Source: Pseudovirgaria hyperparasitica
Lineage: Eukaryota
Direction: 5' to 3' (one strand)
Assembly (NCBI GenBank): GCA_010093815.1
Contig: ML996571.1
DNA: 64,000 bases
Below, piece by piece: positions 128 to 59,176 of the stretch. Each line of letters opens with the position of its first letter. Within the stretch, counting starts at the first letter, position 1. The notes below the pieces were generated by a model, which was not told the origin of the DNA, searched no databases, and saw only the letters and a list, made by a program, of their open reading frames with translations. Position numbers and translations under genes: made by a program.

Positions 128-3100
128 ACTTTACTTATAACCTAATAGAATATAAACTAATTTACTACCGTTTCTAGCTTAACTACTAGTAATAGAGTAA
201 GTAGTAGAAATAATAGTAGACTCCTAGATAAGCGGACGTTTAGTAGTAGATTATAAATAGATAGATAGACTAGCTATACTACTCTATTACTACTATAGTT
301 AGTAAGGTTTATCTTATCTAAAGATAAAATAATAGGGACGATGATAGTACTATCTAGGATAGTAGCGTGTATATCCTACTAACCATCTACTATATAGGCT
401 TTACTATATACCCGGTTACCTAAACTAGTAAATTATTATACTAGCTTAAATATAAGCTTACTAGTAAACGGTCGGTATCTAAGAAGGAATTCTACTAACG
501 TAAGCGGATCCCTATACTAGTATTTAACTATAGTAGTACTAAATATATCGTAGCTACGCTACTAACTTTTATATAGTATCCCTTTAGAGTAGTATAATAA
601 TAATAATATTAGTAAACTAGGTAGAGTACCACTCTATAGGCGCATGCCTCCTCTAGTCTAAGCTACTATATAAGAAGAAACCTACGAATAGGAAAAACTC
701 CCTTATATCCATGACTACGCTCTATCTATCCTCTTATTCTTTATATATATATAGCCCTAGGGGCTACCTATAGGCCTATAGCCTATATTATAATAGTTTA
801 CCCTTAGGTAGTACGTATAGGTACGGAGATTATTAGTTAAGGGCTACTCTTAACTAATAATCGCGGTTCTCCTAGAGTTCTTCCGACGTATACCGGGGTT
901 CTTCTAGTATATATTAGGCTTCTTCTAGTATATATACGCGGGTCTACTAGAACTAGGGGAGAGGAAGGTGTACGAGTATCTATCGGGCGACGTCCTTAGA
1001 GTACTTATTAAGCTATCGCGTGATGTCGGAGGTCCTCGTTATACGGACGAGGGCTTATCTTAGGGTATAGAGGCTAGAGCACGTCGCGAGGTAGTGGCGT
1101 ATTATACCTCTCCGGCCGTAGTCCTCGCACTAGGGAGATATATCTAGGACTCCTCTCTAGTAGAGGTAATATAGGAGATCTATGGCGCCTATTCGGGCTT
1201 AGAGGAGTATGGATGCTTAGGCCTTCGTTAGCCCTTTATACATCTATTTACTCGGTTCCTTCTAAGGCCCTCGGATCTATTCTAGATATCTATCCTATTA
1301 GGAGGCCCACTAGGCTTTAAGTACCTCCCTCTATTTATTCTAGATCCACGACCGTATAACGCGGCTAAGCTCCTTAGGGCTCTATTAGCTTAGAACGGTA
1401 TCCGGGTTATTTCGAACCTCCTATATAGTCTAGCTCGAGTCCACCTCTATATAGTATTTATATTATACTCGAGTTTATTCTATAGTAGGGAGGGCCTAGT
1501 AATACGCGCGGATATATATACGTAGTACGGCGAAGGTATATACCCTATCTCCTCTACGTTCTTATACTTATTATTTAGTAAAGTATATAAGTCTCTATAT
1601 CTAGTAGAAGTCCTATATACTCGTTATGTTTATCTCGCGTTAGAGGAGCGTCGTGTTAGTAGCTTTATATACACTAGAGATAAGGCGGAGTATACGGTTT
1701 TATATAGACTTAAGCTTTACCTACCGAGCTTATATAAGGGCCGTATACTAGTACTCGTGTCTATATATAAAGGCTAGGCGTACTAGAGAGACGTATAGCT
1801 ATCTCGCCTTATCCCAGGCTATTCCCTACGTAGATACCGTAATCCGGTATATGGTAGTTTCTATCTAGAGGGCTCTAGAGACGGCGTGTGCCACCTATGG
1901 TCCCTATTTTAGCTTATTATTAATCATGACGCCGAGTACTTATATACTCTATACTAGTAGTTCTATAAAGGCGTCGATTTAGAGACGACGTACTCTCTCC
2001 CTAGTAGCCTATCCTCCATAGCGGTTAATAAAGTATATAAGCTAGTATTTTTTAGGTGCGAATTTTACTCTATGGCGCTTTACCTACTAGACGCATTTCT
2101 CGTGGTCTTATTCGAGTCGTGTATATATTCTACTAGTACTACTATCAACCGCGAGGAGGTATATATTATCCGCGTATCCGACTACCTCTATATATTCTAT
2201 TCTCTAAAGGAGGTCTACTATAAAGAAGAGGAAGATGATTAGAGAGATGGTACTCCCTTACGGGATGCCGTATACCGTCTCCTTATATTCGCTTCGGTAT
2301 CCGGGGATATATATTTAAGTAGTTCTTTACGCGAGGAAGGACTATATAAATCATATAATCTACTTAGGTATTCGCCTTATCCGGAGGTTATAGATAAGTC
2401 TTATATAGTTTACCCTATTAAACGCCCCTACTATGTCTAGGGAGAGTAGCGTAACGACTCGTCCTTATTTCTATATAGTCTAGATAACCTTAAGGATGTG
2501 TTAAATGGCTATGATTAGGGAGCTTTCTACCTTCGCCTTCTGGTTTACTAGGAGAAGGCCGTGTACCTATACTACTTCTTAGTAATCGTGGCTTCTAGTA
2601 CCTTACTAAGGTAGGAGAGGAGGGCGATCGGCCTCCATCCCTTCGGCGTATTTAGGCTCTTCCCTAGTTTTAGGAGTATAACCGTATATATAGTTCGGAA
2701 GCTCTATGGGTGGTATTCTATACGGGCGCACGCTCGGAATATATGGCCTATAATTAGTAAGGTTGCCTATATAGTCCTCTTAAGGCATTAATTCGGAATT
2801 CTATCTAGCCTAAGCGCTTTGTCGTTCGGGAGTGTCTTAATAGCGCTAAGTATATTATCGTCCGTGATTTCCCTAGAGATACTTATAGCTTCCGGGTATT
2901 CCGTACCGTTAATATCTAATAGGTCTACAGGTTCTAGAAGAGGGAATATAATCTCTTATAGAATCTCTATTTTCTCGAGACTCGTAGAGTACGTCTTTTC
3001 TTAATATATAAGGGGGGGTATAAGTGGTATAGGTGTCGGGGAGGCGGTACTTTTGGCCCATTTTACCATATACCATAGTCTAGTAGTATTACGTGTATAT

Positions 3101-5450
3101 CTATCCGTGACTATATACTACTATTTACGTCGCTCGTTACGGAGAACCTTATCTCGTTATCTTCTCGCCTCTCTCTATTTATTCTATACTTTAGGTGTGC
3201 GGTTATAGTATACGCGTGTGTATAATCTCCGGACTTCTCGCCTATGCTCTTGCACTTAAGGTATGCTTTTCGGGTCTAGGGGTCTATACATTCGGTACGG
3301 CACGTGTTTATCTCTTGCTCCCTAGTACGCCTATAGGAGTGTATTCACGGCCTGGTCGATGGCCGGGCCTCTAGTTCGGAGTTAGATAACTCCTATAGGT
3401 TCGACGTGCCCTATACTATTAGGCCCTGCTCCTGTTTTCGCCTTATCTTATCCCCTCTAGGCTTATACCTCCGGCTCTACTAGGAGAGGTGACCGAAGCC
3501 TCTCCTAGCTAGGTAACTACGAGGTTTACTCCTTAAACTTATAATACTAGCGTACGTGCCTTATGGGCGACACGTTCTATCTCTTTATAAATCGATACAC
3601 GCATCCGTTCTCTCGGGCTATATAGTAGTCTCTCCGGCCAGGACGTAATCCTATCTACTTCTAGATATACTAAGAGTTAGAGCCTATTAAAGGGGTAAGG
3701 TCCTTAGAGCCAGTAGTTACTACTATATACCACGCCCCGCCTTTAAGTATTACTACTTTTCGGTTTCGCGTTACCTATAAGAATCTCTCTATAATAGGCC
3801 GACCGTATCTTATAGGAGAGTATCCTCTAAATCCCTTACGTATATACGCCTAGGCGACTTAGGCATTCTCTTTCTACTAACCCGACTTATTTCTACTACT
3901 CTTAAAGGGTCCCTATAGCTGCCTCCTACCTATGTCTATATACTATTATCTATGTACTCTAGTATCCCACCTCCTACGGTAGACTATAACATCTCTCGTG
4001 CGTGGGAGCCACTCTATCTATTAGTAGTAAAGTAGTATCTTATATCGAGCGAAAGGTCTTAATAGAGTCGTGCTACTAGTAGTTGTACTAGGCGGCTTAA
4101 TAAACGTAGTTTAATACTATAGGAGAGTTAGCTTTAATAAGTTCTTCTAGTAGTAGTTTCTTAGTTGCCCTCGACGTGTTCCTTACGTTCCTAGAGCCGT
4201 TTAAGCCTTAAGGTGTCCTATCGCGCTACTAGGACCTCCGCTTCCTCTACCTAGTTAGTAAGATAGATTTAGGCCTGCTTTCGACATAGTAGTAGCGCGT
4301 TAGATGGTTTTCTTATCCCTTTATCCTCGTGAACTTCTCTTAACGCGTTAATTAGGGATAGAATAGAAGTATATACTTCCCTAGCTAGATTATATTAGCG
4401 TGGTTTAGTAAGGTAGACGCTCCGCAAAAACTCTTTAACTATCTATCTAGCGACGACTAGGTCGCCATTAACGCCGCTCCGAACCTCTTGCTACCTCTAT
4501 AGAGGCATTGTCTAGCTACGACGACGTGGACGCGGTTCGTAAGACTTCGTAGCCCTTTAGAGTAGTATAATAACTACTTATATATAATATTAGATTTTAG
4601 TATAAAAAGGTTAGAGGGTATAGTAGAAGTCTATTTAAGGATAGTAGTTAATTTATTATATACTATATTCGAAATACTAAACTAATTCGTCTATATTATA
4701 AGGCGCTCTATAAACTTACTATCGAATTAACTAAATCGGGCCTACTAAATTAGTTACTACTATAAATCTAGACTACATATACTTACGTTAGACGGATTAT
4801 CACGTCTACTCTAGTCTACTATAATATATATACCGCTCTCTTCTTTGAACGTTTTCGTTAAATATATAGTATTAGACGCCCTTATCGCCATAGACATAGC
4901 ATTTCTACTATATATATTAGACTAATTTACTAAATCGGTACTATAGCTACTAGTAACGCCGTCTATAGATTCTAGGTCTAAAATAGGATTAGAGAATATA
5001 GTAGTATCTTTATATAGGGCCGTATTAGTAGTAGAAGTACCTAATTCTATAGACTAGAACTTCTAATTAACGCTTAATAGCTAAATACTAATAGAGTAAA
5101 CTAAAGAGTTCTATTAACTAATATAACTACGAGTACTAAAGCCGCGCTATAACCCGGTCGATAGTAGTAGCCACGGGCCTAATAGTTATAATAATAATAG
5201 TAATACGGTAAGCCGTGCTTATCTATATAGTTCCGAGTTATAGTACCTACGGATTATATAGTATATACTACTAATCTTTCTACTATAGTATTAGTAGGAG
5301 ACTACGGCCTATAGTATCTCGAGGTATAGTTACTATAAAGGAAAAATACTATAGTATAATTATTAGTAGATAGTAATAATATAGTATACGGTAGATATTC
5401 TAGGCGTATACTAGAAGAAGTTAGGTGTAAGCCTATTAAAAGCCTAATAT
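128..5450 (-). pseudogene. Plavaka-family (CMC/EnSpm-related) transposase, N-terminal half, RIP-inactivated and interrupted by a LINE at 601-4552
   Basis: De-RIPed minus-strand reading gives YWYRDPLTLVEFLL, GNRVYSE..TADGWW and IIVPIILSSDKTNLTNYGGDRVAWPVYLSI.NL (about 540-240), typical Plavaka (PF18759-like) motifs. A possible C2H2 finger lies near 5300-5230. The start position is approximate. Confidence 0.85.
601..4552 (-). mobile_element. Tad-like LINE, RIP-mutated, apparently internally deleted
   Basis: RT motif VGYADD at about 2185-2165; C-terminal C..C..H..C knuckle near 1130-1080; (TTA)n tail. Direct repeat CCCTTTAGAGTAGTATAATAA at 580-600 and 4553-4573 is the TSD, with some overlap with the tail. 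Confidence 0.9.
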
Positions 5451-5649
5451 ATACCTACTAACCCCCGACTTCTACCCGGCTCTTAGCCCCTTAATTTCTA
5501 TATACGCTTGCTTAAAATTATTAATAATAATACGTAAGTATTACGCGTCTATAAAAACACTATATTAGTCTATATCTAAACCTTTATCGTGTCTACTAGC
5601 TAGTTATTATCCCGCTACCTAATATTATCGCCTAGTAGGTTACTAACCT

Positions 5650-7729
5650 ATAGCTAATAAAAATATCTACTAATCTCTTATATATCTTCTCTATAGGACC
5701 TCTAACACGGAAGACGATTAAGGAACTATCTAGCTACCGTAGCGGTAATACTAATAGAAGATAATCTAGTAACTATAGTAAACTAAACGAGATAGATAAA
5801 TAAAGATATAATATAACGTAGACACGTATTAGTATTAATAATAGGGACTTATATAATAGCCATTAATATAAAAAACGTATATATATACACCTAGCTCATC
5901 TCGACGCGTTTGTTTATCTACTAATAACCTAGTAGTCTAGGTATACCGGTAGCAAATATAGTAGTAACGCCCTATATAGCTTAGACGTTACGGTAATATC
6001 CTACTATAATAGTAACTAGGGATATAACGGCCTTACGTCCTCTTCTCTATTATATTAGCTATCTAGCTTAATAGAAAAAGATAGAGAAATAGTAGTAGAG
6101 AGGGAACTAACTATCCGTAAAAAGAGGCGGTTCTATAGAGATAGTCTCTAGTCTTATAAACGAGACCGGTACCTTATAATAACTAAGATTTTAATTACTA
6201 TAACGTTTTTAGGCCGGTTACTACCGGTATTTAATTATCTTAATATATGGCTAGATAGTAGTCTAGATAGTTTTAGGATACTAGTATAATTAGCCTAGAT
6301 AGCCGCTAGAGATATTAATCTTAGTAGCTACTACCTTAATTATAATTTATAAAATATATCTCCTATCTATGTTATTACGCTAGTAAAGGAAGATATAATA
6401 GACTTCCGTTACTAACTCCTCTCTAGAGTTAGATAGATAGTATCTAAATACTAGGACTAGAAGATAGTCAAGAAGAGAAAAGCTAGTATAAGTAACCTAA
6501 TATATAATAACGCGTATATAGAAGTAAAGGTATATTACTTATATTATATTAGATATATTACTAATTATTAGTATAATACTAGCGTAACTTAGAAAATGTT
6601 CGTAGGGCTAGTAGTAATTAAGGCTCTAAAGTTAGTTCTACTATAGTCCCTAAGATTCCTTAGATTAAAGGAGTACTATAGTAGTATATTCCGACTAATT
6701 CTACTATCTATAATTACCATTATATATATTATAATAAGGCATGCCCTTAATAAATATAGTAGCGGGTAGGCGCTAAACTCGTCCTTTAGTCGCTATAGAT
6801 TTACACGCTCTCTACTAATACTAGGTATATATATATATCTTTATCTAATTGCCTACTAAATTATATAGAGGAATAGCAAGTACTAAGCCTAATATAGTCG
6901 AACTAGGCGCCCTACTATATTAACTATATTTAAAAATCGCTAATAGTATTAGTATTCGTAGTACTAATACTAATTAACCTAGATACTATATATATAAACC
7001 TATATAAAGATAACCTAGATAACTTCTCTAAAGTAGATATAGATAACTTAGATAAGAGTAAGGAGTCTAAGCTATCGGGTAATATAAGTATATACTAAAG
7101 TTATAGAAGCTATATAGATACTAACTACTATAAAAAGGATAAGTCGGATACTCTAAACTAGTTAGATAAGTACCTCAAATCATCTTATACGCCATTAGAT
7201 ATAGGTAAGAGTTCTACACTACTAGTAGTAGCTATAGATAAGATTATACTATCTTAGGTATTAAGTATAGACCCGCTCTAAGTAACTACAAGAACGGTAA
7301 ATAATAGTATATATACGTATAGTATAAATAAGTCTATTACTAACTTATTATCCCTAGTTATAGCTACCTTAACTAGTAGTCTATCTACCCTAACTAATAC
7401 TTAAATTAAAATAAAGTTAGATAGTAGCGGACGTTTAAGTTAGGTCTTTAACCTATATATAAAGAGTATATACTTTTAAGAGAAGTCGGATATTAGTATA
7501 TAACTAGGGAACTATATAGACTACCATAAGACTAAATAGATAATATAAGAGAGAATAAAAATAGTAACTAGAAATATAGAGGGAAGTGTCTAGTAGGAGA
7601 AAAGGTTATTAAAGGTAGTTCTAGATAAGAACACCTTTTAATAGATAAAGGACACCGCCTAAAGATAGAAGAAAGGAAGGTCTACTATATTTTATTATAG
7701 CTATATAGTCGGAGAGAGCTTAGAATAGT
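5650..7729 (+). pseudogene. Unknown RIP-destroyed gene, divergent from the Plavaka transposase and truncated by the LTR at 7730
   Basis: Long frame broken only by TAG/TAA RIP-type stops (e.g. SSLIEKDREIVVERELTIRKKRRF near 6062), with an intron-like stretch near 6530-6575. No family recognised; limits approximate. Confidence 0.4.
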
Positions 7730-8029
7730 TATTAGGACTTAGCCTTAGGTAGAACCCGACCTACACGTACCTTAGCTAACAGGGTTAGGAGGTAACGTAA
7801 AGGGCGGTAAACAGTTACGTACTAGATAGATCGGCGTCCCTTTATATATATACTCTTAGATTTCTACTAAAAGGGTTCGGTAGTAATTCGTTCTATAATA
7901 GAATACACCCTATTATTCTATCTAACTATACTACTATCTAATAACCCTATTCTTATATTCGAATTACTCCCTATATAGTACTATAGTTAAGATAGTCTAA
8001 CTAGAACCAAGAAGGTCAACACGATCTAC

Positions 8030-9305
8030 TATAGAAATAAGTAATACTACATTAAATAATAGGGATCCTCTATAATTAGTATTAATCCTAGCCGTTTCTA
8101 ACCAAGAAGTAGAAATATTAGACTAAATCACGGAGCTTTTAGATAAAGAAATAGTAGATATACTAAGTAACTTCTAATAATATAAAGCCGGATAACGAGT
8201 TATGGCGGAGCCACATGAGGTATTATAATAAACTATTACCGAACTTTAGAAATACGTCGCGAATTAGGCTTAAGAGATTTAAACTATTAAAGAATAGATA
8301 GAACGCGCGAAACTCCTCGTAAAGAGACGAGAACTTAAGAAGTCTCTTAAAGAACTACGCCGAACGATAGTAGATAGATAACTCCCTATACTAATTTAGG
8401 CGGAATTAGTTCACCTACCATTAGAGTTATAATAATCTACCGTATACCCGGCCGCTTCGTTACCGATTTACCCTACTCCTTCCTTAGATATACTAAAATC
8501 TAAAGACCCGACTATATTTATAGAGAAGAACTAAAAGGAGTAGAAAGACTAGAAGAGAGACTACGAAAAGTACTTCCTTAATAACCCTCTACTCTTTTTT
8601 ACTAAAGTATAATATATTTCGTTCGGAGAACGATACCTAGGCTTATAATCCTATGATTAATAGAATAGATAGAAGGAAGTATAGCTACTATCTACGATAA
8701 CCTAGGAATATTTAGCTATATTTATACTAAACACCCTCGGAACGGATAGAGAACGTGAAAGAAAGGCACTATCTAAGTTAAGAAGCGTGGTATAACGATC
8801 GAACTAGACACCTACTTAACTACTATAATACCTCTAAAACCTATAGGATAATATCCCTACGCTATAGAAAAATATTTATATATTCTAGTTTCGCGAAGTA
8901 CTACTTCCGTTAATCCACGAAAGACTAGGAATAGTATTATTAAGTTTTAACTATCTATATAAATTAGAGGAGAAAGCTAATGAATACTACCGCATCCTTA
9001 AGGAACGCGGCTCTCTAGGTAAAACCGACGAACCCTATACGGGTTAGAAATAAGGTCGATCGAATACGTTCGATCAAGAGTAACCTTACCGCGATTAGCG
9101 CTAGAAGAGCGTAAATTAGGGTAGAAACGCGTTAAGAGGACACCGAAATAATTAAGGCGGTACTTCTTAACGCGGAAAAGTATAAGGCATAGGCTTAAAT
9201 ATAACGCCTATCGTAAAATAGTAGGATTATAGCGCACTTCGTTACTATAAGTATAGAGAAATAGAATATATTTCGCCTAACTATAAGAATCCGAAAAAAG
9301 AATAG
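8030..9305 (+). pseudogene. gag: gag of element B
   Basis: De-RIPed CCHC knuckle RCYKCGEIEHISPNC at about 9240-9285, then an A-rich slippery run (CCG AAA AAA GAA TAG) with pol in the -1 frame. Start approximate. Confidence 0.8.
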
Positions 9306-12300
9306 GCTAGTACACAAGACCTAACCGCGTTCTTAGCTAAATTATATATACTTAGAAGGAGCCATAGCGCCTTCCGGCGAGTAAAGACCTAATATTACTA
9401 AAAGTATCGTTATCTATAGTAAATGGTAATAAAACTATATAGGCCCTCGTGGACACTAGTATAGAAGATAACTATATTTTATTAATTCTCGTAAAGGAGT
9501 ATAGATTATCGTATAATCTCGGTAAAGTTAGCCGAACCATTATAGTTAATAGACATAAAGTTAGAACTTTAGGCAAAGCTATAACGAATTACGAAGTTCA
9601 TGACTCGAAGATAATAAAATAGTAGATGTCTAATAAATTCATTATGGCTAATATTAGCTAATAGAATATGATTCTAGGGATGCCTTAGCTTAGACGCCTA
9701 AACTCTATCCTTGATTTTTAGAAGGAGACATTAACGTTCTAATAATACTATAGTAAATTATACTAGTAAGTTATAACTATTAGTAAGGAGGCATAGAACC
9801 TCGCCGTGCGGACCCGATTATCGCTAATCTATCTTGCGTTCTTATCGATTATCGATAAAGACAAGGACGATAGTAATAATTAGGGCGAAGACACGCTACC
9901 TAACGTATATTCGTAGTATACAGATATATTTTCGGTAGAAGATACGTTACTTCTCCCTAATTACAGGCCGTATAAGCTAAAGATTAAGCTCGAAGAGGGA
10001 GTAGATATCCCTTATAGTCTACTTTACCTACTTTCGAGACTAGAACTCGAAGTTCTTTATAAATATATTAAAGAATACCTCGAAAGAGGCTAGATATATT
10101 ATAGTACGTTATTAGCCGGCGTACCTATTCTCTTCGTGAAGAAGAAAGACGGAAGTTTACGCCTATACATTAACTATCAGGTACTAAATACGGTAACTAA
10201 GAAGAATCGTTATCTATTACCGCTAGTTAGTAAATCTTTATACTAATTAACGAAGGCAAAGTACTTTACGAAGCTAGATTTACGAGATATATATTACCGG
10301 CTTTAAATTTGTTACGGAGATAAGTAGAAAACCGCATTTCGGACTAGATATAGTTATTTTAAGTATACTATTATACCATTTAGGCTAATAAATGCGCTAG
10401 AAGCGTTTTAAGGATATATTAATACTATACTCGTAGGATTACTTAACGTGATTTACGTAGTTTATCTTAATAATATACTAATTTACTCCGATAGCATGTA
10501 GAATCATAAAGAACACGTGAAATCGGTACTAAATCGTCTAAGGTAGTATAAACTCTACGTAAAATTATCTAAATGCGAGTTTCACTAATAAGAAGTTAGG
10601 TTTCTCGGCTTTATTATGATATATAGCGGCCTAAAAATGGAGCCGGAGCGTGTAAAGACTATCATGGAATGGCTAGAACCTACTACTATATATTAAATTA
10701 GAACATTTATAGGTTTCGTGAACTATTATTATAAATTTATTATAGGCTTCTTATGAATTACGGCGCCGCTTAATAAACTCATAGAGAATAGCGGTAAAAT
10801 CTCTATAGGTAGGCGAGCATAGCGTAAAGCTAAGTCGGTCGAGATATAGTTAACGCCGGAAGCGCGAGATACGTTCCGATCGTTAAAGAATTACTTTATA
10901 ACTACGCCGATTCTTAGGTATTTTAATTCTAAGAAGTATATTTAGGTTAAAACTAATACGTTAGAATTTATAATTACTAGAATTATTAGTTAACTATATA
11001 AAGATATAAAAGATAAGGTATAATAGCACCTGGTCGCTTTCTTTTCCCGTAAAATAGCGGATATAGAGACGCGTTATAATACGCATGACTAGGAACTACT
11101 CGTAATCGTTAAGAGTTTTAAGTAATAGTAATATTATTTAGAAGGCTCCGTATATTAGATCGAATTATTATTAGATTATATAAATCTACGTTACTTTATA
11201 TTAACTAAGGTTCTTAATTACTAATAAGTACGTTAGGCTAAGTAGATGTTAATATTTAACTTTAAAATCTTATATAAAGCTAGAAGAGAGAATAAAGCTA
11301 ATCCTCTATCGCGGCGTGAAGATTATAAGAAATCGTTATAGAATAACATAGATAGTTAGTATAAGTTAGACTATACTATACTTTAGATACTATAAGACTA
11401 GTTATCTAATAGAATACTAGAAGCTAGGACACTTTCGGCGATTCTCTACGGGAATTAGAGCGGGTATTAAGTAATCTAAATAAACGTCTAAGAAACTAAG
11501 AAAACCCTCGAAGACTTAATTAAATCTACCTAGAATTCCGATATATTAGTAAAGAAAGTCATAAGCATGAAAGGAAGCGCTATAGATCCGCCGTAGTTAT
11601 TAAGGTAGGAACGATAATCGGACGCGATCTACTTCCAAGGCCGACTCTATATACCGGAAGGCGGCTTACGAATTAATGTTTTAAGGGAATAGCACGATTA
11701 CGTGTTAGTAGGGCACTTTAGCGTTATAAGGACGGTCGATTTAATCCGAAGGACGTATGACTAGCTAGGTCTTTATAAATATATAAAAGACTACGTAAAA
11801 ACGTATAACGTTTACCAGTATACGAAAGTATATAGACACTTACTATATAGCGAATTAAGGCCATTACCTATGCTAAAGGAGGCATGGAAGGAATTATCGA
11901 TGGATTTTATTATAGATCTACCCCTAAGTAAGTATTCTAGGTACATTTATAATAGTTTACTCGTAGTTCTAGATAGATTTATAAAGATGTTATACTATAT
12001 CCCTATGAGGAAGACGATCTAAGTACTAGATCTTATAGATATACTACTCCGTAACGTAGTTCGGCTCTATAGTATACTAAACGGTATAGTTTCGGATAGA
12101 GGTCCGTAGATAACATCTAAATTTTAGAAGGATTTCTACTATACGCTAGAAATTAAGCGGAAACTTAGTACTATATTCTATCTATAAATAGATAGGTAGA
12201 CGGAGTAGTAGAATTAGATAGTCGAGGTGTATTTACGCGTATATTATAACTATAAGTAGGATAACTAGGTAAGGTTAGTCTATGTTGCGGAATTCGCGTA

Positions 12301-20400: not shown

Positions 20401-20579
20401 GGATTGGATACTAGTTATATATTTCCCCGCCTCTATTAAATTAACGAGTTATTACTAATAACTATACGGACTACTTACGTTAATATAGCCGTAACGTACG
20501 TATTATACCTACGTCTATTATATAGAGTATATATATTATCTCTCTATTACTCTAGTAATATACTCTATTCTCTATTCTA

Positions 20580-47780: not shown

Positions 47781-48131
47781 TCGTGTGAGGCGTTCCTAAA
47801 GTAGTATACTTATATGGCCGTATTTATAAATGATAGCTATAGTAGCACTAAATAGGTTATATTTGTCGTTTTTAAACTCTTCTTTGCTGCTTTATCTAGC
47901 CCTATTTTATATCCTATTCCCCTAAGACATTTTCGAGTCGCACTATCACCCGTGTTAGCATGCGTATACTTTTTATAGCTACTTTTAAGAGGCTAGCCCC
48001 TAGCGACTCCGGACTCCCTGTTTTCCGGACTCGTGGCTTCGATCTAGTAAGTCTAGACTACCTTATTAGGCACGCTATATACTTCCCCTAAGCTAGTTTC
48101 GGAGTCCTAATCTCCCTCTATAAGTTTATAG

Positions 48132-48148
48132 TCCGGGTACGACCTCTA
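48132..48148 (-). promoter_or_regulatory. Primer-binding site of element D, complementary to the 3' end of tRNA-Gln
   Basis: The plus strand reads TCCGGGTACGACCT-CTA (CCA before RIP), resembling the fungal tRNA-Gln 3' end (..TCCGGGTA(A/G)GACCT-CCA, U discriminator). It lies 4 nt inside the 5' LTR. Confidence 0.7.
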
Positions 48149-49440
48149 AAATTATAGTAAGCTATTGCTACGTGTATCCCTTTTATAAATAGCTATGTTC
48201 CTAGTATAGTAGTCGACGACGAACTCACAAGTATCTCTCCCAGGTATTATGAGTTCTCTTTGAACGCACGACTTCTTATTAGTTCTCTTTTACGATAGGA
48301 CGGGTCTATATAATACTCTTAATCAATTCTTCAATAGCTAAGCCTAATAATCAATACCCATAGAGGCCCATGAACGTAAGGAAAGGTTAAATAGTCGAAT
48401 ATTAGTGATGGGGGAAGCGCGCCGAGCAGAATGACCAAGGAAAACGCCCTCCTTAAATATACAATGAAGCCATGTAATCGAGCTAGGGACACATACATGT
48501 GGGGCTGTAGGAGCGGCCTTCCATAATAGTTAGTAATTAAACGTGTCCTAGAACATAGTAATAGTATAATACTCCTTAGCCTTAGATAGAATATAGATGG
48601 TATACCCAAAGTAAAACGAAATATAAAACAGCGACTAACATATAATAGTATAGACGGCTATATATAGGTTACGCTTAAATAAATCCGTCTCTCTATCTCT
48701 AATACTATACTTACTATAACTAGTATAATAATAGTAATAGAAAGCTACCGCCTATAACGGTAGAGATACCCACGAAGATAGTATTATAGGTAGTAGATAG
48801 TATTACCTAAACGACTCGACCCTTCCTCTAGTAATACTATATATACTACTATCGGCACTTAGAAAGCCGTAAGACTAATCTATAAACTCTAAAGATAGTA
48901 ACTTTAAAAGTCTTAGAAGCACCTTAGATATAGAGGATATAGATCTCGATTATAAAGAGTAATAGAATAATAAAAAGAGTGCTAGGGGTAGTAAGAGTAG
49001 CGCGTGTATTTAGCTAAGGTAATATAATACTAATATAAGACGGGTTCTATCTATAGTATATTAGTATATGCCCGATTCTACTAGCTATATAACCGTGGCG
49101 CGCATGTTTAATCAAGATATTAACATACCGGCATAAGCCGGCGTCTACCTGTTTTATATTAGTATACGCCCGGTTCTACTAGCTATATTATTACTATGAT
49201 TATATTCGTATAAGATCTATACTAATAATTAAATATTTACTTATATACTTTACTTTCTCTATACTTTATAAAATTATATTATAATTAGTAAACGTGGTAA
49301 CTTAACCTCTACTACCTAAATATAGCTTTTAACTCTTATTACTACTAACTCCGTCTTATTACTCATGACCTAAGTCGTATATAGAAATATATAAGTATAG
49401 CGACAGTCACGACCGTCCTAGCTTAACTACTAGCTATAGA

Positions 49441-52400
49441 ATAGCTAACTATAATATATACGTACGACGTACGGAGGCCTTAAGCGTTAGCGCCTTTCTA
49501 CCATATATCTAGTATCTCTAAGGCCTACACTAACTACCTAAAATAAGTTATAGTATATATAGGGATACTATTATTAAGATAGCACGCGGAAAAGTATTAT
49601 AAGAGCTTAAAAATAGTAGTATAGATACTACTATACTTATTAGAATAGTTAAGGAAACCATTACTAAAGAATTTAATTAGTATATTACGGCTATAGATAG
49701 TAAGTTAGTACCGATAGTTATAGCTATAGATATAACGGAGGCTAAACTAGATATAGATATACTAGCTATAGATACCTAGTTATAGTCGCTATTAGAATAT
49801 AAAGAGAAAGAGAATATAGAAGATACTAAAATAGAAGACGACGTAATAAGTATACTTAGACATATATATATACTTAGTACTAGATACTAATATTAGAGTA
49901 GTATCGAAGATAGGTACGGCCATGCTCGCCGACTTAGATAATCTCTCTATAAGTACTATCGTGCCTAGTAAAGCTTATATACGCGTAAACATACTAGCTA
50001 TAGATATATAGTTATAGTTACTATCGGAACATAAAGAGAAAGTAGTTATAGAAGATACTAAAATGGAAGATAACGTAATAAGTATACTTAAATATATATA
50101 TATACTTAGTACTAGATACTAACATTAGAGTAGTATCGAAGATAGATGCGGCTATACTCGCCGACTTAGATAATCCCTCTACGAGTACCGTTATACCTAG
50201 TAAAGCTTATACACGCGTAAATATACTAGCTATAGATATATAGTTATAGTTACCGTCAGAATATAAAGAGAAAGAGAATAGAGAAGATACTAAAATAGAA
50301 GACGATATAATAAGTATACTTAGACATATATATATACTCGGTACTAGATACTAATATTAGAGTAGTATTAAAGATAGATATAGCTATAATTACTAACTTA
50401 GATAATTATATAACGGATGCCGTTATGCCTCTAGATACTAGCGAAGCTTACCTATAGTTACTAGTAGTAAAGAGGATACTCTTAAATAATATAGTAAACC
50501 CCATAGATTCTTCTAAACGCTTAAAACTAGAATATAGTATACTACTAGATATCGACTGGCGGATACTTAAGTACTAGAATCTAATCGAGTTAATAGACGA
50601 TTTATATAGTAGAAATATATTAGATATATTAGATAATACATTAGTAGACGATATTATCTTTATTATCTATTCTCTAGGTAACGAGCCTAACAAAGACGAA
50701 GTAAAACCAGATATAGATAACGATCTTCTAGTAGATAATAACCTTAGTATAAAACTTTAGGAAGTATAAGTTATACTAAGTAGCGAGTAGGAATATATAC
50801 TACTATACTAATATATCTATAGAGTATTTACCGTTAATAACTCTAATAAAGTAATCTAAGCTATCTCTTATTATACGGAAGAGATATAGTTACTTACTAT
50901 AAGTATATTTAGGCTCGCGCTAGATAATCTAACGAAGGACTTTGGCTATACACCTATTCTATATCTAGCCTTTAGTATAAGTAGGTTATATAGACTATAG
51001 GCCGGCCAATTACTCGCGGTAGTTACTATGTTTAAGTAGCGGGCGGGTCTATAAAACTACTAGATCTTAGTAGATAGTCTAGGGCTAGAGAAGACTATTA
51101 TACTTATAACGTTTATCTACCTCGCATTCTATTAGGACTTTCTACGCGATAATATAGAACTATACCTAGAAAAGTATCTACTATCGACTTAAGACCTAGG
51201 TATAGATAGAAAGTACCTAATATAATCTCTATATCTAATTAAATATCCGTGTAGCTAGACTAATAAATTTAGCAAGGTGCCCCGTCTTCAAGGACCATTT
51301 ATACTATACTATCTAAGGAACCTCCTAGTATTATATTAGCCATAGCACTTTAACTAGATATACTATAATACGGATAGTATGTTCACTAATAAAATTAATA
51401 AACGGAACCTAATAAAGATAGTAGTATGGTTAGTATACTTAAAAACCCTTCTTAACGCCCCTAATATCTAATAACTCTTGTCTATAGACGTATACTATCT
51501 AGCTAAGAGGTGCCCTAACCCCGAATAGGAACACCGTAACGATATTAGTAATCCTATAAAATATAAGACCGGCAAGAAGTATATTACTAAGGAGTAGTTG
51601 ATTTACGTTAATAAGACTACTACTATTAAATTCCCGTTATAATACGTAAAGAATAATATAGTCTATACTACCGTCTAAAGTATAGAGACCTAATATATTA
51701 TAAACTTTACTAGACGCGTGGTTCTAAAAGAGAAGAAGGCAAAAAAATTTAGCGCTAATATTATTTAAACTTATAACATGGTATTCATTAGTATATTTAT
51801 AGTAGATAAGTTCTATACCTTAAAAAAACCTATAATAAAATAGTATAGGTATACGTAACTTAATCCCTTTATATTTAGTATATAGATTAGTATAACGCCC
51901 CTCTTAAATAGTCTATTAGATATTCTATTAGCTATTGAAACGGGTATCCCGGATTGGTTATCTAACTACGTTAATAATAATACTACTAAATTGGTATTTA
52001 AGAGTATATAGAAGGGATCTATAAGAAAGATAGTTATAACATGGTCGAATAAACTCCTCTCTTAAATAAAAAACAAGCCGGCGGAGACGATAGCTAGTAT
52101 AGTTAGTATAGTATTAGAAACTATAGACGGTAAGCGTACACTATATATAGTAGTTAATTAGTATTTACTATTCGTCCTATAAAGGGGATAACTAAGTAAG
52201 TAGTTTAATAGAAAGAACTATCTATCTATAATAGTAACCCTAGTAGTAGATATTATATATATTACCGCTATAGATATAGAGAAGCGGGTCGTATAGTTAT
52301 ATAAGGATAAAGGCCAAAGGCTCCTTAAATAAGCTATTACCTAGGGTAAATTAAATAGGCTCGGGTATAACACGTACTACTATAAGGCTAGGCTAGCTAC

Positions 52401-53290
52401 TACGTATATACTACTTATATACCTTACCGATAAAAGGATAAGTAAGGAATATATTAAAATTAGGCTTATACGTCCGTTAATAGATAATAATAGTATACTA
52501 GATAGAGTAATTATTAATCCCATGCGCGAATTGCTTCCCTAGCTAGATAATAGTATATAAAAGGATATAATCTTACTAGCTTTAAAAGGAGTCGCTTCGA
52601 AGGCAAACTAGCTCCGTAAGCTTATTAATGAAAAGGTTTATAATAAAAATACTAAACGCGCGCGTTAAACGTTTACTAACTAACTAGAGAAAATTATAAT
52701 TGCATCTACTATACTAGTAACCGTAATATTCCTATATATGGTAAGTATTTACATTAGTACTTACTAGTAACATGATTTACTAATATATATATAGGCACTA
52801 CGTTTATACGTAAAATCGAAAATATTAGTATATTTACCGGCTGGCCTAAGTACGTCTAGTATAAATAAGGTATACTAAGATTTTAGGTTAAATAAGTTAG
52901 ATTCTCCGTGTATTTTACTAGCCTTAGCTTCGTAAGTCTATAAGGGATAAGATCTAATAGTTACCGGTTATATTATATTAGTAGACTAATGCCTACGTAA
53001 GGAGACGTGGCCGTAGATAAGTATAAGATATTATTACCATAGATAATATTAGCCTATAGTATATGTATATACTTTAGTTTTAGACTATTTAGAGGTTAAG
53101 AGTAGACTTACCGCGTTAGGCTAGGTAATTAAAAGCATAAGGAAATAAGCCTTAGACCTAGGAAAAGAAGATATAGCTATGGTAGCAACGACTATACCTA
53201 ATATACTAGTATTAGGCGTATACTTTAGTAATCCCATAGAGATATAGAAGTAAGTAAGGTAGTAGGTTAAGTAGCTTCTAAGAGACTAGA
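49441..53290 (+). pseudogene. SNF2-family ATPase/helicase, RIP-destroyed, intron-containing
   Basis: De-RIPed motif I ILAD..GLGKTI (51064-51100), motif II FIVDEFH (51796-51816) and motif III ISATPLLN (51886-51910); helicase-C-like end; intron GTAAGT..CTAAT..TAG at 52741-52793. Confidence 0.72.
49759..50430 (+). repeat. 232-bp tandem repeat, nearly 3 copies, in the SNF2 gene 5' part
   Basis: Units start at 49759, 49991 and 50223; each contains intron-like GTATAC..CTAA(C/T)ATTAG signals. Confidence 0.92.
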
Positions 53291-53379
53291 TAGTATAGTA
53301 GTATAAATATAAACCGCTATTTACTTATAAATATATATCTATATATATCTATATGTAAAGAGAAATAAGATATTTATTC

Positions 53380-53592
53380 TATGCTAGTATATAGTAGAAC
53401 GTTACTATATATGCCAGTATATAACGGGATATTCTAACATACGCCGGTATATTATAGGATATTCCTAGATACTTAAAATATAGTTATAATATAAAGTAGT
53501 ATCACTATTATATACCGGCATATAGTAGAACGTTACTATATATACCGGTATATAACGGGATGTTCTAACATGCGCTAGTATATAACGGGATT
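53380..53592. repeat. Intergenic array of CCGG-centred motifs (TATACCGGTATATAACGGGA-like), forming a ~130-bp duplication
   Basis: AGTAGAACGTTACTATATAT.CC.GTATATAACGGGAT.TTCTAACAT.CGC occurs at about 53393 and 53523. Confidence 0.8.
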
Positions 53593-53629
53593 AAACGTTT
53601 TCTTAACGTTTAATAGAATGATTCTAGAA

Positions 53630-53790
53630 GAATAGGGACGGCTCTAGGAGAACTAGGATAACTCCGGGAGGACTAAGATAACTTAAGAAGTACCGGGACA
53701 ACTCCGGGAGGAATGGGACAACTCTAGAAGTACCGGGACCTATTTAGGATAACTTTAGGAGTACCGGAAGACCTAGAAGTACTAGGAGCG
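53630..53790. repeat. Degenerate 20-bp tandem repeat (GGGACAACTCCGGGAGGACT)
   Basis: About 6-8 visible units, at the 3' end of the minus-strand unknown gene. Confidence 0.8.
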
Positions 53791-56248
53791 CCGTATCTTT
53801 TCTAATGAAGGTAGAATTAGTATTCCTAAAGTATATCTATATAACTAAGGTATATGAGTAGAGGATTAATATACTATATATCCTTAGTTATAGTATAGAG
53901 AATTAAATAGCCCTATTACTCTCTAGAGGTAGGGTATTAATATATAAATACTACTATTATATAGATAGAAACTTAGAAGAAACGGGAAAATACTTATAGA
54001 TAGGTATGAATAGCGATTTTATTAAAGGTTCTCTACTATCTACTAATAAATTCTTTGGTATATTTAAGAAGATACTTATTTCGTATTATAAAGTTTATAT
54101 CCTAATTAGATTATATTCGATTCTATTAGCTTAATAACTCTTCTCTAGATATATTATAATTAAGGGCTTATTTCTTTTATTTCGGCTGGCTAGATATAGT
54201 ATATTTCCTAGAAATATTAATAAAGATAGTAAGGTATCTATAAGCAACGTATACAGAGATAAACTAGTTAAATACTTAGAAAAATTAAGCTTAAGCTATA
54301 ATAGACTATAGACTTATAACTAACTCTTAAGAGTTACTATTAATCTAATATATTAATCTACCTATATAGTATATCCCATTTACTCTAAGATTATATCTCT
54401 ACTTAGTTAGTCTAGATATAATATACTATACTCTACTTACCCTACTTAGTAAGGAGTAGTAGTAGATCTAGAGTTATAGTATAAAAGCTAAGACTCCGCC
54501 TTACCTTTATTAGAAAATATAGTTACTCTTATAGAGGACCTAGTAGCTAAGAGAGAGACTATTTCTAGAGAATTAAAAATTCTATTCTTAAGATATTACC
54601 TTAAACCTTTTAATACCTCTTTTCTTAGTATATTACCTCTAGTCTATACGGCTAGGTATATTAGTTCTACTAATAATTCTTCTAGATCTTAACGGAATAT
54701 CTAGGGAAGATCTATATCTATCCTATAGTATTATATCTAATCTTTAGAATATAGTCCTTAATATAGAGCTTAAGGAATAGCTATAGAATATAGATAAGCT
54801 TATTTAATCTTTAAATTATAATTATATATAAAATCCCAAGTAAAACGGTCTAGATCCCTATTATTCTAATAAATTTAGATATCTCTATAAGGCCGCTAAG
54901 GGTATACTTACCCTAAGTATACTAAAAGAATACTAAGGGTAGTTTAATTAATTTACTAATATATAATTCTACGTCTAACGGTTATCTAGATAATATATAA
55001 AGTTTATTTACTTCGTTAAGAAGAAGTATCTATACTATAGAGACTCTATATAGACGCCTATAATATATATACCTTAGCTTATTTCCTCTTAGATTAACTA
55101 CTAATATAGAAAATCTAAAAAGGATAGTAACTTCTAGCTTTTATAAGAAAGAAAGGATAGTTTCTAGTTATATATAATAAAAATACGTGCTACTATATCT
55201 TACTACTACTTATATATTATCTACTAAGGAGAGGGTTTGTTTATTTAGAAGACTAATAGTACTTTCTTAGGAAATCTAATTTATAGTAACCTTATAGCCT
55301 ATACTATAAAGGTACTATACTAGATAAAGGTACGTGGTAGAGAGGTATAGAAGAGTATATAGTCTATAATATCGTTTTATCTAAAGAGTCTCTATAAGTA
55401 TAATATAAATATTAAGACCTTAGACTATTCTATCTAAAACCTAGATAGTAAGGAAGGAAGAGTTTAGGCTAGTACGTAATAACGTATAATAATATACCTT
55501 TTATATATAATTACCTTTTAATATCTTCTTAGAATTAACGAAGCTTTACGTATTAAAGTTTAATATATCCGAATTTATAATATAAAGTCTAGAAAGGTTA
55601 AGATCTTACTTAACTTTCGGAAGTCGGCCTAGATAGATAGTATATTTCCTATAATATCTAATATCCATACTCTAAAAGAACATATATATAAATATTAAAC
55701 TATTCTTCCTCTACTTTAATCGAATAGAGCTATAGCTTAATATTCTAACTCTACTCCTTAAGTAGCTATACTAATTAAAGATCCGTAATAGATTCCTTTT
55801 TTACGGTTTTACTATATATAATTAACTAAAGCTTAATAAAGCTAAATACCTTATACGTATATCTATAGACGTATATTCGGTGCCTAGTTACTAACCTATT
55901 ATTATTACCTAGTCTACGTCTTTATTTCTTTAGAACTTCCGATAGAACCTTATAGATATCTAGCTTAAAAGTAGTCTCTATAGTAGCTACTTGTTTTAAT
56001 AAGACGGGGTTTAATTTCTTTCTAGTAAAAAGTACTAGAATCTTTAAAAAATATACGACTAGGGAGGATAGAGTATAGATAGTAAGTATTTTATAGTACT
56101 TTGGTATCTCTTTAGCGTAAATAACAACTCTATTTACCTACGGGAGGTATTTATAAATCCCTATATTACTATAGCTATTTGATATGGTTATTATAGTCGA
56201 AGTTATTAATACTTATAGTTATATTAGAATACTTATTATTATTTAAGA

Positions 56249-58357
56249 TCCATACTATCATGCTCCCGAAACTAGGAAAGAGCTCTAACTCCCTAAAGGG
56301 ATAGAGACCAATCGCCCTTCTCTCCTACCTAGATAAGATACTAGAGGCCATGATAGCGAAGAAGATAAGTACCGCGGTATAGGAATACAATCTCCTCCCT
56401 CCGAACCAGAAGGCAAAGGTAGATAGCTCCCTAATAATAGCTATCTAATATATTATCGAAGTCGTCTAGGCCGCATAGAAATAGGGACGGGTAGTATCGC
56501 TCCTCTCCCTCGATATAGCCGGAGCGTTTAATAAGGTAAACCATATAAGACTTATTTATAACCTCTAGATAAGACGAATACTAGAATAGATTATATACTT
56601 TATATAGTCATTCCTTACAGGAAGAATAACTTAGATATATATCCCTAGGTACTAGAGTAAATATAAAGAGACGGTATACGGCATCCTATAAGGGAGTACC
56701 ATCTCTCTAATCCTATTCCTCTTCTTTACGGTAGACCTTCTTTAAGGAATAAAGTATATAGAGATAGTCGGATACGCTAATAATATATACCTTCTAGCTA
56801 TTAATAATAATACTAACCGAACATATAGATAACTAGAATAGAATAATAAGAGGTACCTCTAGTAGGTAAAACGCCACGGAGTAAAGTTCGCCCTAGAGAA
56901 ATACTAGCTCATACACTTCATTAATTATTAAGGGAAATAGGTAACTAGGGAAGGCGAACGACGCCCCCGAATCGACGTATTTAATAAACTACTAGTATAA
57001 AGTATACGCGCGCTCGGAGTCATACTAGATAGTAAGCTTAAATAGGGACTATAAGTAGTATACGCCGTCTCTAGGGCCCTCTAGGTAGAAGCTACTATAT
57101 AATGGATTATAGTCTCCACGTAGGGAACCGCCCGGGATAAGGCACGCTAGCTATATATATCTATAGTACGACCCGCCTTTACGTACGGACACGAGTGCTA
57201 GTACACGGCCCTTATATAGACTAGGCGAATAAAGCTCGAATCCATATAGAACCGCATACTCCGTCTTATATTAGGCGTATATAAAGCTACTAATACGGTG
57301 CTACTACGACGCGAGATAGACGTTATAAGTATATATAACTTCTACTAGACATAGAGGGTAGTATACTTCACTAAATAATAAGTATAGGAACGTATAGGAA
57401 ACGTAGAATATACTTTCGCCGCACTACGTGCACGAATTAGTATATATTACCGCGCACTCCTATATATAGGCTAGAATTAAATATGGTATAGATACTTAAT
57501 AGAAGCCGACTCTAGCTAAGTAGTATAAGAAGTCCAAGATAACCCGGACGCTCTTCTAGACTAGTAGAGCCTTTAAGAACTCGTGAAAAATATACGGTCG
57601 TAGACTTAAGATAAGTAGAAAGAGATACTCTATGCCCACTAGACCTTCTAGTAGAATAGGTACCTAGAGTAGATTCAAGGGCCATAGAAGAAACTAAGTA
57701 AATAGATATATAAAGGGCTAACGAAAGCCTAAGTATCTATACTTATCTAAGCCCGAACGGGCGCCATAGAACTTCTATACTATATCTATAAGAGAGACGT
57801 TCCCGATACCTCTCTATAGTATAAGGCGTGCGGCCGGAGAGGTATAATACGCTACTATCTAGCTATATACCCTAACCTCTATATATAATGGTAATGGCTT
57901 ATCTACGTTACGAAGACTTTAGATATTATATAATAGCTTAATAAGTACCCTAAGGACGTCTCCCGATAGATACTTATATATCTACTACTTCTCTAGTACT
58001 AGTGGACCTAGAAATATATGCCGGAAGAGACCCGGTATACGCTAGTAGTAACCCGATATATACCGGAAGAACCCTAGGAGAACCCCGATTATTAGTCGAG
58101 GGCAGCCCTTAACTAATAACCTCCGCACCTATACGTGCTACCTAAGGGTAAAATAACGGTAATATAGGCTATAGGCTAATAGGCGTACCCTATAGCTATA
58201 TACTTAAGATAAAATAGAGGTTTAACGAGATATAGTTATAGATATAAGGAAGTTTTTTCCCTATAGGGTTTCTTCTTATATAGTGGCTTAGACTAGAGGA
58301 GGCATAGGCCTATAGAGTACTACTCTACCTAGTTATATAATATTATTATTATTATTA
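56249..58357 (+). mobile_element. Tad-like LINE, 5'-truncated within RT
   Basis: De-RIPed RPIALL, LDIAGAFDKV, GIPQGSTISPILF and VGYADD (~56767); (ATT)n tail; TSD TTATTATTATTTAAGA at 56233-56248 and 58358-58373. Confidence 0.93.
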
Positions 58358-58529
58358 TTATTATTATTTAAGACTTTACTTAAGCTTTCCGTTTTATATA
58401 TACTCTAGTATATATTTCTCTAATAATAAAACGAGTGTACTTTTTTAGTATTTATAGGAAACCATTAATATTATACTAGGATATAGAAAATACCTCTTTA
58501 TATATAGCTATATTTAGATAGATGTTTCT

Positions 58530-58980
58530 AAATATATAACTTAAATAAATTAATATAGAATAAGAATATATTAAAATATAGTTATAAATAATAGAATATT
58601 CTAAGTATAAATTAATATATAGAAAGAAAAAGCTAATATATAGCTATATATAATAGAATATATTAAAGTAGACATTATTATATTAGAAAGAATATATTAC
58701 TAGATAGATATATGTAATAGTATATATCTAAGTAGAAGTTACTATATAATAAGAATAGATTAATATATAGCTATATATAGTAGTATATATCTAAGTATAA
58801 GTTAATATATAATAAGATTAGATTAATATATAGAAAGAATATATTAATATATAGCTATATATAATAGTATATATCTAAGTATAAGTTACTATATAAATAA
58901 GAATAAGTTAATATATAACTATATATACTAGTATTATACTAAGTATAAGTTACTATATAGCTATATATACTAGTATAAAT
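58530..58980. repeat. Degenerate AT-rich tandem repeat (~40-bp units such as ATATAGCTATATATAATAGTATATATCTAAGTATAAGTTAAT)
   Basis: Recurrent units are visible but heavily RIP-eroded. Confidence 0.7.
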
Positions 58981-59176
58981 TAGGGTTAAGGTTTACTATA
59001 GCTTATTATGTTTTTATCGGAATATTAGAGATCCAAATATATTTAGCTTAGAAAAAACGATAAACTATACTAAGTTTAGTAGCTACTATATACTACTAGG
59101 TATCTTAGGAATCTAGATAAATAGTTCTTAGAAACTTACTAATATTAAGAAAAAACCGCCCCGAATCTAACTAGGT

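Follow-up and report, generated by a model that had tools for sequence, protein, structure and literature searches.

Is the sequence left between the nested retroelements of a heavily mutated fungal locus one giant transposon, or a set of separate repeats joined by nested insertion? This question is raised by a stretch of 64,000 nucleotides from Pseudovirgaria hyperparasitica (GenBank assembly GCA_010093815.1, contig ML996571.1), to which we refer, at its full length, as the window. A first-pass annotation of this DNA had proposed that removal of the nested insertions uncovers a backbone of about 24 kb, and we retained 25,477 bp between 128 and 59213, in line with that estimate. In this backbone we recognized a Plavaka transposase relic in three colinear pieces, a multicopy segment bearing the relic of a probable helicase gene, and a possible SNF2-like ATPase. 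We give just under an even chance to the reading that the backbone is a dead copy of one large, once multicopy Plavaka/EnSpm-like class II transposon.

RIP saturation of the window and its backbone

We confirmed that the window is saturated throughout by repeat-induced point mutation (RIP), whose classical CpA-to-TpA pattern is known from Pezizomycotina and suggests an ascomycete host. In all 32 two-kb bins, TpA/ApT lay between 1.5 and 2.0 and (CpA+TpG)/(ApC+GpT) between 0.08 and 0.34, and the guanine-plus-cytosine (GC) content of the window was 26-42%. No open reading frame (ORF) of 150 amino acids (aa) or more was found in any frame of the whole window, and a tRNA scan detected none. The backbone had been described at first pass as tightly packed ORFs; this did not hold, since we observed only a frame-persistent coding-like signal in some of its parts. 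Stop density per frame failed to single out genes in the window, and exact motif searches in plain translations were uninformative, as Cys and His become Tyr under RIP, and Gln and Trp become stops.

The mutational load was even higher in the backbone than in the retroelements (RIP substrate index of 0.16 versus 0.25, and GC of 30.3% versus 37.1%), which goes beyond the equal saturation claimed earlier and is expected if the backbone is the older target of the insertions. Among the five long backbone pieces, the index ranged from 0.14 to 0.17 and the GC content from 29 to 34%. When followed in 500-bp bins, the index showed no relaxation away from the insertions, nor toward the middle of the 7.0-kb and 7.7-kb backbone pieces.

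Pfam scans were carried out on 82 translated pieces with stops read as X. They covered both strands of 128-7731 at E<=0.01, and 3301-7730 on the minus strand also at E<=10; the plus strand of 15001-22103 at E<=0.01, and at E<=10 in parts; both strands of 16600-19751 at E<=10; both strands of 20301-22102; both strands of 30001-37103 and 48501-59203 at E<=1, the limit being E<=10 for plus-strand pieces of these; and one frame of each Gypsy interior. Positions 59204-64000, the minus strand of 15001-16599 and 19752-20300, and the remaining Gypsy frames lay outside these scans. The sensitivity of Pfam on RIP-saturated sequence is poor, and an absent match is weak evidence. Motifs were sought with a RIP-aware reading, in which every TpA may stand for a former CpA or TpG, and hidden repeats with a purine/pyrimidine-collapsed self-comparison, which ignores transitions. 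Moreover, frames were ranked by a coding score, a 3-periodic Markov model trained on the pol frames of the Gypsy elements and of the long interspersed nuclear element (LINE)-like repeats. As a control, this score chose the correct frame for the helicase and for the third Plavaka piece, ranked that of the first piece second and was wrong for the second; it discriminates weakly on short pieces.

A Plavaka transposase relic that continues across an inversion

The presence of a Plavaka transposase, claimed at first pass, was borne out by three colinear matches to PF18759, the first of which scored 39.6 bits against a Pfam cut-off of 26.3 (coordinates of all features are collected in Table 1). This first match heads toward an inverted long terminal repeat (LTR) at 1-127. 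If 128-7729 has been inverted, as the earlier model of re-inverting this segment implied, the Plavaka domain must continue on the plus strand just past the 3' LTR of the Gypsy element termed A, and this is where we found the predicted continuation: in a lenient scan of 15102-15401, PF18759 was the sole family matched. Taking the LTR as TGTTAGG...TTCTTACA, we find AAAGT both in its flank at 132-128 on the minus strand and at 15114-15118, as a presumed target-site duplication; this placement of the boundary is not certain, as the four bases upstream of TGTTAGG are alike in the four LTR copies. Upon removal of Gypsy A and one AAAGT, the codon phase continues exactly, from 132 and 129 on the minus strand to 15120 on the plus strand, and the Pfam frame of 15102 is in phase. 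These findings support the inversion of 128-7729.

Between profile positions 169 and 198 we counted 35 codons where 28 were expected, which puts the continuation about 7 residues off its predicted position, and the gap between the second and third pieces is about 43 codons longer than expected. The frame of the third piece scored best across 16607-18856. Each of the two downstream matches would be trivial alone; together they make a convincing case for one split transposase gene, since they belong to one pre-named family of 24,736, lie on the predicted strand and are colinear. This gene is cut by a LINE-like copy at 593/594, by Gypsy A together with the inversion, and by a foldback cluster. 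A search with the Plavaka piece against longer proteins returned 0 homologues, and the piece at 3375-7729, which lies upstream of the transposase in the reconstructed order, gave zero Pfam matches (plus strand at E<=0.01, minus strand at E<=10). A separate candidate, 15374-20351 read as an element with terminal inverted repeats (TIRs), was dropped because the third Plavaka piece makes 16607-19746 part of the backbone.

A probable helicase with zinc knuckles

The product once encoded at 33170-35134 was very probably a superfamily 1 (SF1) helicase, to judge from domain and motif relics in a single frame. The AAA_12 profile (PF13087) matched from position 20 to 192 of 195, with an E value of 0.0023 in the frame of 30002 and of 1.3e-4 when a 350-aa query was used. 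Upstream of it, a RIP-aware Walker A motif lies at 33170-33193, with the codons GCT AGG AAG AGC completing the pattern; this pattern has two six-frame matches in the window, one of them in the helicase frame, compared to a mean of 0.4 in 20 shuffles. The same frame contains VIIEEA at 33935 and NVVTITRAK at 34673-34699, the positions of which we take to fit helicase motifs II and VI; motif II thereby reads VIIEEA, not DEAxQ. Directly downstream and still in frame, we observed three CCHC knuckle relics (34958-34999, 35021-35062 and 35093-35134), all of them of the Gly-His form under RIP-aware reading and with one Cys codon intact. No such trio occurred in 20 shuffles.

These relics support the assignment of the putative helicase to the Upf1-like type with C-terminal zinc knuckles that had been named at first pass. 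Against this stand an AAA_12 score below the Pfam threshold and the lack of any AAA_11 match in the helicase region. The P-loop region gave a PIF1 match of 25 residues only, at E 0.15, and a strict RIP-aware scan for SF1 motifs performed no better than shuffles. Searches with the helicase region yielded 0 matches against PDB sequences at E<=10 and 0 matches in a word-indexed collection, and a 1200-aa query from it gave 0 matches at E<=1e-3 against 1.84 billion representatives.

Over 30053-33202 the coding score favors a minus-strand frame that is in register with the helicase frame, with margins of 10-31. These 3 kb upstream of the Walker A motif may represent the N terminus of the helicase or a separate gene on the opposite strand. 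Tandem repeats were observed in the same backbone piece at 30910-31232, 35163-35327 and 36660-36807. An 18-bp backbone unit corresponds to a hexapeptide repeat in the helicase frame, and a 15-bp unit to a pentapeptide repeat, NTTRA, just past the third zinc knuckle; further units in the backbone are 24 bp long, 232 bp long in about 3 copies, and short near 53.5 kb.

Copy number of the helicase segment

We examined the abundance of this segment in contigs from two public runs (X1 and X2) of one sample of the source organism, placed on 30053-48100 wherever they were at least 80% alike. X1 contained 61% and X2 51% of the words sampled from 30053-37088, and the contigs placed on 30053-48100 numbered 36,087 and 13,272, respectively. 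Across 11 bins of 30053-36674, the summed word depth was 17,425-26,843 in X1 and 8,149-12,992 in X2, while contigs identical to the window had a depth of 308.7 and 212.3. The helicase piece thus exceeded the exact-match depth 56-87 times in X1 and 38-61 times in X2. The segment 30053-36674 is therefore multicopy, at roughly 40-90 single-copy equivalents, a rough figure since summed depth is not a copy number. In X1, the variant letters over 30053-48100 comprised 1025 transitions and 12 transversions. The backbone part contains 18 of the 40 variant sites listed; 17 of these 18 are transitions, and each alternative letter was carried by 5-20 contigs.

The depth over 30053-36674 was flat, without a step at either end, which indicates that the repeat unit passes both Gypsy insertion points and exceeds 7 kb. 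The earlier inference that the whole array was multicopy is thus upheld for the helicase piece, the copy data covering 30053-48100. For 30053-36674, this depth also contradicts the possibility, raised as a test at first pass, that the helicase is a single-copy host gene.

Gypsy C, the element that adjoins this segment, reached a summed depth of 104,491-171,645 in X1 and 33,555-62,253 in X2 in the bins of 37277-48100. This is about 6 times the summed depth of the backbone, or about 340-560 single-copy equivalents by the same rough ratio, and makes the 11.4-kb Gypsy C a major repeat of the source genome. We also observed joint contigs in which Gypsy-C-like sequence lies next to backbone (46573 joined to 32114, and 34173 joined to 37082). 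The joints at 32114 and 34173 suggest that Gypsy C has also inserted independently into other backbone copies.

A possible SNF2-like ATPase

In the 7.7-kb backbone piece at 48526-56246, one plus-strand frame was the best in 14 of 16 windows of the coding score (48976-55725), most strongly at 50326-53025, with margins of 20-31. This frame contains the strings LVDSLGLEKT (51067), FIVDKFYTLKK (51796) and I*ISITPLLN (51880), which resemble the first three SNF2 motifs (I, II and III). When all transitions were admitted and the patterns were loosened after the site had been seen, the motif chain scored 27 of 30, compared to a maximum of 25 in 25 shuffles. These observations are suggestive of an SNF2-like ATPase at 51067-53121, as had been annotated: the chain is the best of the window and lies in the strongest coding frame. 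The searches that could have consolidated this assignment were empty, with no SNF2 or Helicase_C match in any of the 82 translated pieces and 0 matches at E<=10 in a PDB sequence search with 50776-53475; a strict RIP-aware scan for SNF2 motifs was no better than shuffles. Tandem repeats occupy 49738-50430 and 53354-53749 in the same piece.

The SGNH-like gene of the first-pass annotation was not recovered. A lone string resembling block I, LILGDSFS, lies at 36643-36620 on the minus strand, and the Lipase_GDSL-type Pfam profile had no match at E<=10.

One giant element or a mosaic

If the backbone derives from one element, its genes would lie on one strand in the order Plavaka DDE transposase, then, about 7.6 kb on, SF1 helicase with three C-terminal CCHC knuckles, and probably, further downstream, the SNF2-like ATPase gene. 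Cut-and-paste transposition would have spread this element to tens of copies, after which RIP would have hit every copy. The present copy would then have been invaded by three Ty3/Gypsy elements, by LINE-like copies and by foldback repeats, and recombination between two inverted LTRs would have flipped 128-7729. The mobile unit would measure about 13 kb as a minimum, from the transposase to the end of the helicase piece, and might exceed 25 kb. The helicase and the ATPase might have been accessory genes with effects on RNA or chromatin that, for instance, aided transposition or blunted silencing. This fuller version, namely a giant Plavaka (>=13 kb, possibly >25 kb) that carried helicase-knuckle and SNF2-like anti-silencing cargo and attained tens of copies in a RIP-competent ascomycete before RIP struck, we hold more tentatively than the single-element origin itself.

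Circumstantial evidence for one unit comes from the even RIP level across the long pieces (0.14-0.17) and from the orientation of the coding frames: once the order is reconstructed, those of transposase and helicase share a strand with the one at 50.3-53 kb. Large Plavaka elements that carry accessory genes are also on record in other organisms. Moreover, retroelement domains numbered 0 in the scanned 25 kb of backbone, compared to their detection in 5 of 5 retroelement copies scanned, and no boundary was seen inside 30053-36674, the part with clean depth bins.

Several observations weigh against a single element. The window self-comparison, plain and purine/pyrimidine-collapsed, revealed no TIRs, no subterminal repeats and no duplicated backbone pieces; the collapsed comparison returned nothing beyond tandem repeats and the LTR, LINE and foldback families described here. 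The copy-number data are limited to 30053-48100, and the 7.6 kb from the Plavaka domain to the helicase hold no recognizable domain. The second and third Plavaka matches fall below the Pfam cut-off, as does the AAA_12 match (22.1 bits against 27), and a spurious match to a Borrelia family at E 0.014, found among the 82 scanned pieces in the backbone piece at 48526-56246, shows that weak E values are unreliable here. Neither the SNF2-rel_dom nor the Helicase_C profile matched in 48526-56249 (plus strand at E<=10, both strands at E<=1). When its patterns were fixed beforehand, the SNF2 chain, while still the best of the window, scored 23 of 30 and was tied by 2 of 30 shuffles. Sequence searches retrieved no homologue for the Plavaka piece or the helicase region. 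In regions degraded by RIP, unrelated repeats often lie nested in one another. Finally, the accessible parts of the literature searched describe no Plavaka element with a helicase, and in the papers examined for this combination the term helicase denotes something else.

The strongest competitor, which we rate somewhat below even, is a mosaic in which an ordinary-size Plavaka relic, a separate helicase repeat (Helitron-like or other) and further repeats were joined by nested insertion. Such an origin would account for pieces that share no linking repeat or terminal structure and for the domain-free 7.6 kb between the Plavaka domain and the helicase, in a window that is heavily nested with five other repeat families; the joint contigs, which place Gypsy-C-like sequence beside other backbone positions in other copies, also speak for it. 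The faint PIF1 match at the Walker A motif points in the same direction, and helicase-bearing Helitrons are common in fungi according to the accessible portion of PMC12730594. On the other hand, no Helitron_like_N or Rep match was found upstream of the helicase at E<=10, and it is AAA_12, not PIF1, that the C-terminal half of the helicase matches along its entire length. A mosaic also sits uneasily with the flat depth over the measured 6.6 kb that include the helicase, with the equal RIP level of the pieces, with the common strand of the three gene relics, and with 25 kb free of any retroelement relic although retroelements dominate the window.

It is very improbable that the helicase and SNF2-like genes belong to the host in single copy and were mutated when RIP leaked out of neighboring repeats. 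Spread of RIP into unique flanks is known, and repeated retroelements do flank these genes; however, the helicase piece is multicopy in contigs of the organism itself, which refutes such leakage for 30053-36674, RIP is undiminished toward the middle of the 7-kb pieces, and the backbone is more mutated than the retroelements. More improbable still is a Starship-type element with its tyrosine recombinase outside the window and with Plavaka and helicase as cargo or passengers: ends beyond the window, large size and mixed genes are compatible with it, but the 82 scanned pieces contain no match of tyrosine-recombinase or DUF3435 type, in agreement with the first-pass annotation, and tens of near-identical copies are far above the number usual for Starships.

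Nested insertions and remaining features

The nested insertions inferred at first pass are substantiated by three LTR pairs that enclose reverse transcriptase, RNase H and integrase domains, and elements A, B and C are Ty3/Gypsy elements (Table 1). In the one frame scanned of the Gypsy C interior, RNase H and the integrase zinc domain were the only domains detected. Gypsy B matches Gypsy A in inverted orientation in the purine/pyrimidine-collapsed comparison, and the LTR family of Gypsy A recurs at 63655-64000 and, inverted, at 1-127. The LTR pairs of A, B and C differ by 17, 15 and 31 transitions, respectively, and by 0 transversions, with 49 of the 63 differences in CpA/TpG context. Since these differences are transitions only, all of the LTR divergence is due to RIP, and the insertions are young by the measure of ordinary mutation. 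Target duplications are ambiguous for Gypsy B (4 of 5 positions matching, AACGT versus AAAGT) and for Gypsy C (4-bp ATAG).

Table 1. Coordinates of the backbone pieces, gene relics and insertions in the window
Feature	Position	Strand	Basis and remarks
LTR end of a second Gypsy-A family element	1..127	-	96.2% identical to 7856-7727 inverted; boundary TGTTAGG on minus strand; left partner of LTR-LTR inversion
Backbone P2, Plavaka piece 1	128..593	-	PF18759 at 537 to 166, profile 41-169 of 325, E 4.9e-10
LINE-like repeat copy 1	594..3374	-	RVT_1 at 2488-2003, E 7.5e-10; inserted in N-terminal part of Plavaka gene
Backbone P1, upstream of transposase in reconstructed order	3375..7729	-	RIP substrate index 0.15
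Ty3/Gypsy element A	7730..15113	+	LTRs 7730-7957 and 14886-15113; RVT_1 (1e-20), RNase H, Integrase_H2C2, rve, SH3_Tf2-1
Backbone P3, Plavaka piece 2	15114..15373	+	PF18759 at 15186-15302, profile 198-236, E 0.13
Foldback or miniature inverted-repeat transposable element (MITE)-like cluster, about 3 copies inside Plavaka gene	15374..16606		Direct and inverted matches of 125-430 bp, also with 19747-20351
Backbone P4, Plavaka piece 3	16607..19746	+	PF18759 at 16784-16909, profile 277-318, E 0.042
Fourth foldback or MITE-like copy	19747..20351		Self-comparison
Backbone P5	20352..22001		RIP substrate index 0.14; no Pfam match on either strand
Ty3/Gypsy element B, related to A	22002..30052	-	LTRs 22005-22247 and 29810-30052; RVT_1 (5.5e-21), RNase H, SH3_Tf2-1, Chromo
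Backbone P6, helicase gene relic	30053..37084	+	Flat summed contig depth; RIP substrate index 0.17
Probable SF1 (Upf1-like, AAA_12-type) helicase core and, downstream of it, three CCHC zinc-knuckle relics	33170..35134	+	AAA_12 at 34148-34720; RIP-aware motifs
Ty3/Gypsy element C	37085..48525	-	373-bp LTRs 37085-37457 and 48153-48525; RT_RNaseH (6.1e-11), Integrase_H2C2
Backbone P7, long coding-like frame with tandem repeats	48526..56246	+	Coding score; no credible Pfam match on either strand
Possible SNF2-family ATPase relic	51067..53121	+	Motifs I (51067), II (51796), III (51880); weaker V (52954), VI (53059)
LINE-like repeat copy 2	56247..58355	+	RVT_1 at 56284-56937, E 8e-12
Backbone P8, AT-rich tandem repeats between LINE copies 2 and 3	58356..59213		18.5% GC
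LINE-like repeat copy 3	59214..62506	Opposite to copy 2	Self-comparison

The first LINE-like copy matches 59214-62506 directly and 56247-58355 in inverted orientation, and RVT_1 was present in both copies scanned (1 and 2). Copies 2 and 3 (56247-62506) form a head-to-head inverted pair around an 858-bp spacer at 58356-59213. Copies 1 and 3 share an end point (3374 and 62506), which may mark the real 5' end of the family or reflect a segmental duplication. The foldback family consists of about 4 copies of 450-600 bp, each of them partly self-complementary and three of them packed inside the Plavaka gene, and these copies are less mutated by RIP than their surroundings (substrate index of 0.40-0.57). 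The 1.1 kb between the third LINE-like copy and the last LTR (62507-63654) contain a clear coding-like minus-strand frame with a margin of 19.5.

Comparison with known systems

Red algae already provide examples of giant Plavaka elements that carry accessory genes; what would be new in this window, if the backbone is one element, is a cargo of helicase and possibly SNF2-like genes. Should these genes travel together, RIP-active fungi would join the organisms in which Plavaka elements have lately been seen to pick up genes that affect the state of DNA, RNA or chromatin, and two new kinds of cargo would be added to TET/JBP in mushrooms and to methylase/SET and 2-oxoglutarate (2OG)-oxygenase proteins in red algae. 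The question would then arise whether transposon-borne helicases and remodelers help elements to escape silencing. Should they be separate families, the locus would be an ordinary RIP-degraded repeat nest, and its lasting value would be methodological: reading stops as X, RIP-aware motif reading and the predicted continuation of a split domain can together recover genes from saturated RIP.

The fungal Plavaka elements PlavakaA and PlavakaB belong to the EnSpm/CMC-Transib clade, and some of them carry a TET/JBP dioxygenase gene; the accessible part of that report describes families in Agaricomycotina, with termini TGT..ACA or CATCA..TGATG and duplications of 2-3 bp (PMC12730594). As far as that part goes, the element considered here shares with them the transposase family PF18759 and a class II nature able to carry a gene acting on nucleic-acid or chromatin state. 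It differs in that its termini would lie outside the window (RIP, moreover, rewrites motifs as short as these), its host shows RIP at CpA, and its cargo would be a putative helicase with CCHC knuckles and perhaps an SNF2-like protein, not TET/JBP.

For red algae, the available portion of a preprint (bioRxiv 10.1101/2025.02.11.637652) describes giant Plavaka elements, 17.4-19.1 kb long, that occupy one third of a genome and carry three accessory genes (PAG1-3), among whose products are a DNA methylase plus SET protein and a ParB-like plus 2OG-oxygenase protein. Within that portion, the likeness consists of a large element with several accessory genes linked to DNA or chromatin, and of massive copy number followed by decay. 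The same portion mentions no helicase; kingdom and silencing system are different, and the single-unit status of the element proposed here is inferred.

Helitrons encode a Rep HUH nuclease plus a Pif1-like helicase. A multicopy fungal element encoding an SF1 helicase would resemble them; however, the C-terminal half of the helicase in the window matches the Upf1-like profile AAA_12, no Rep or Helitron_like_N match was found in any plus frame of 30053-33204 at E<=10, and, to our knowledge, C-terminal CCHC knuckles are not a Helitron trait. Starships are fungal elements of giant size that depend on a DUF3435 tyrosine recombinase for their movement. Large size, cargo genes and a Pezizomycotina-type genome would be common to both, whereas here we find a DDE transposase and, in the pieces scanned, no recombinase, with a copy number in the tens. 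RIP-degraded nests of repeats, which form AT-rich blocks, occur in Pezizomycotina, and the window resembles them in its saturating CpA-to-TpA mutation, its nested Gypsy and LINE insertions and its lack of any intact ORF. It differs from such nests in having 25 kb free of retroelement domains, with three gene relics of class II or helicase type on one strand.

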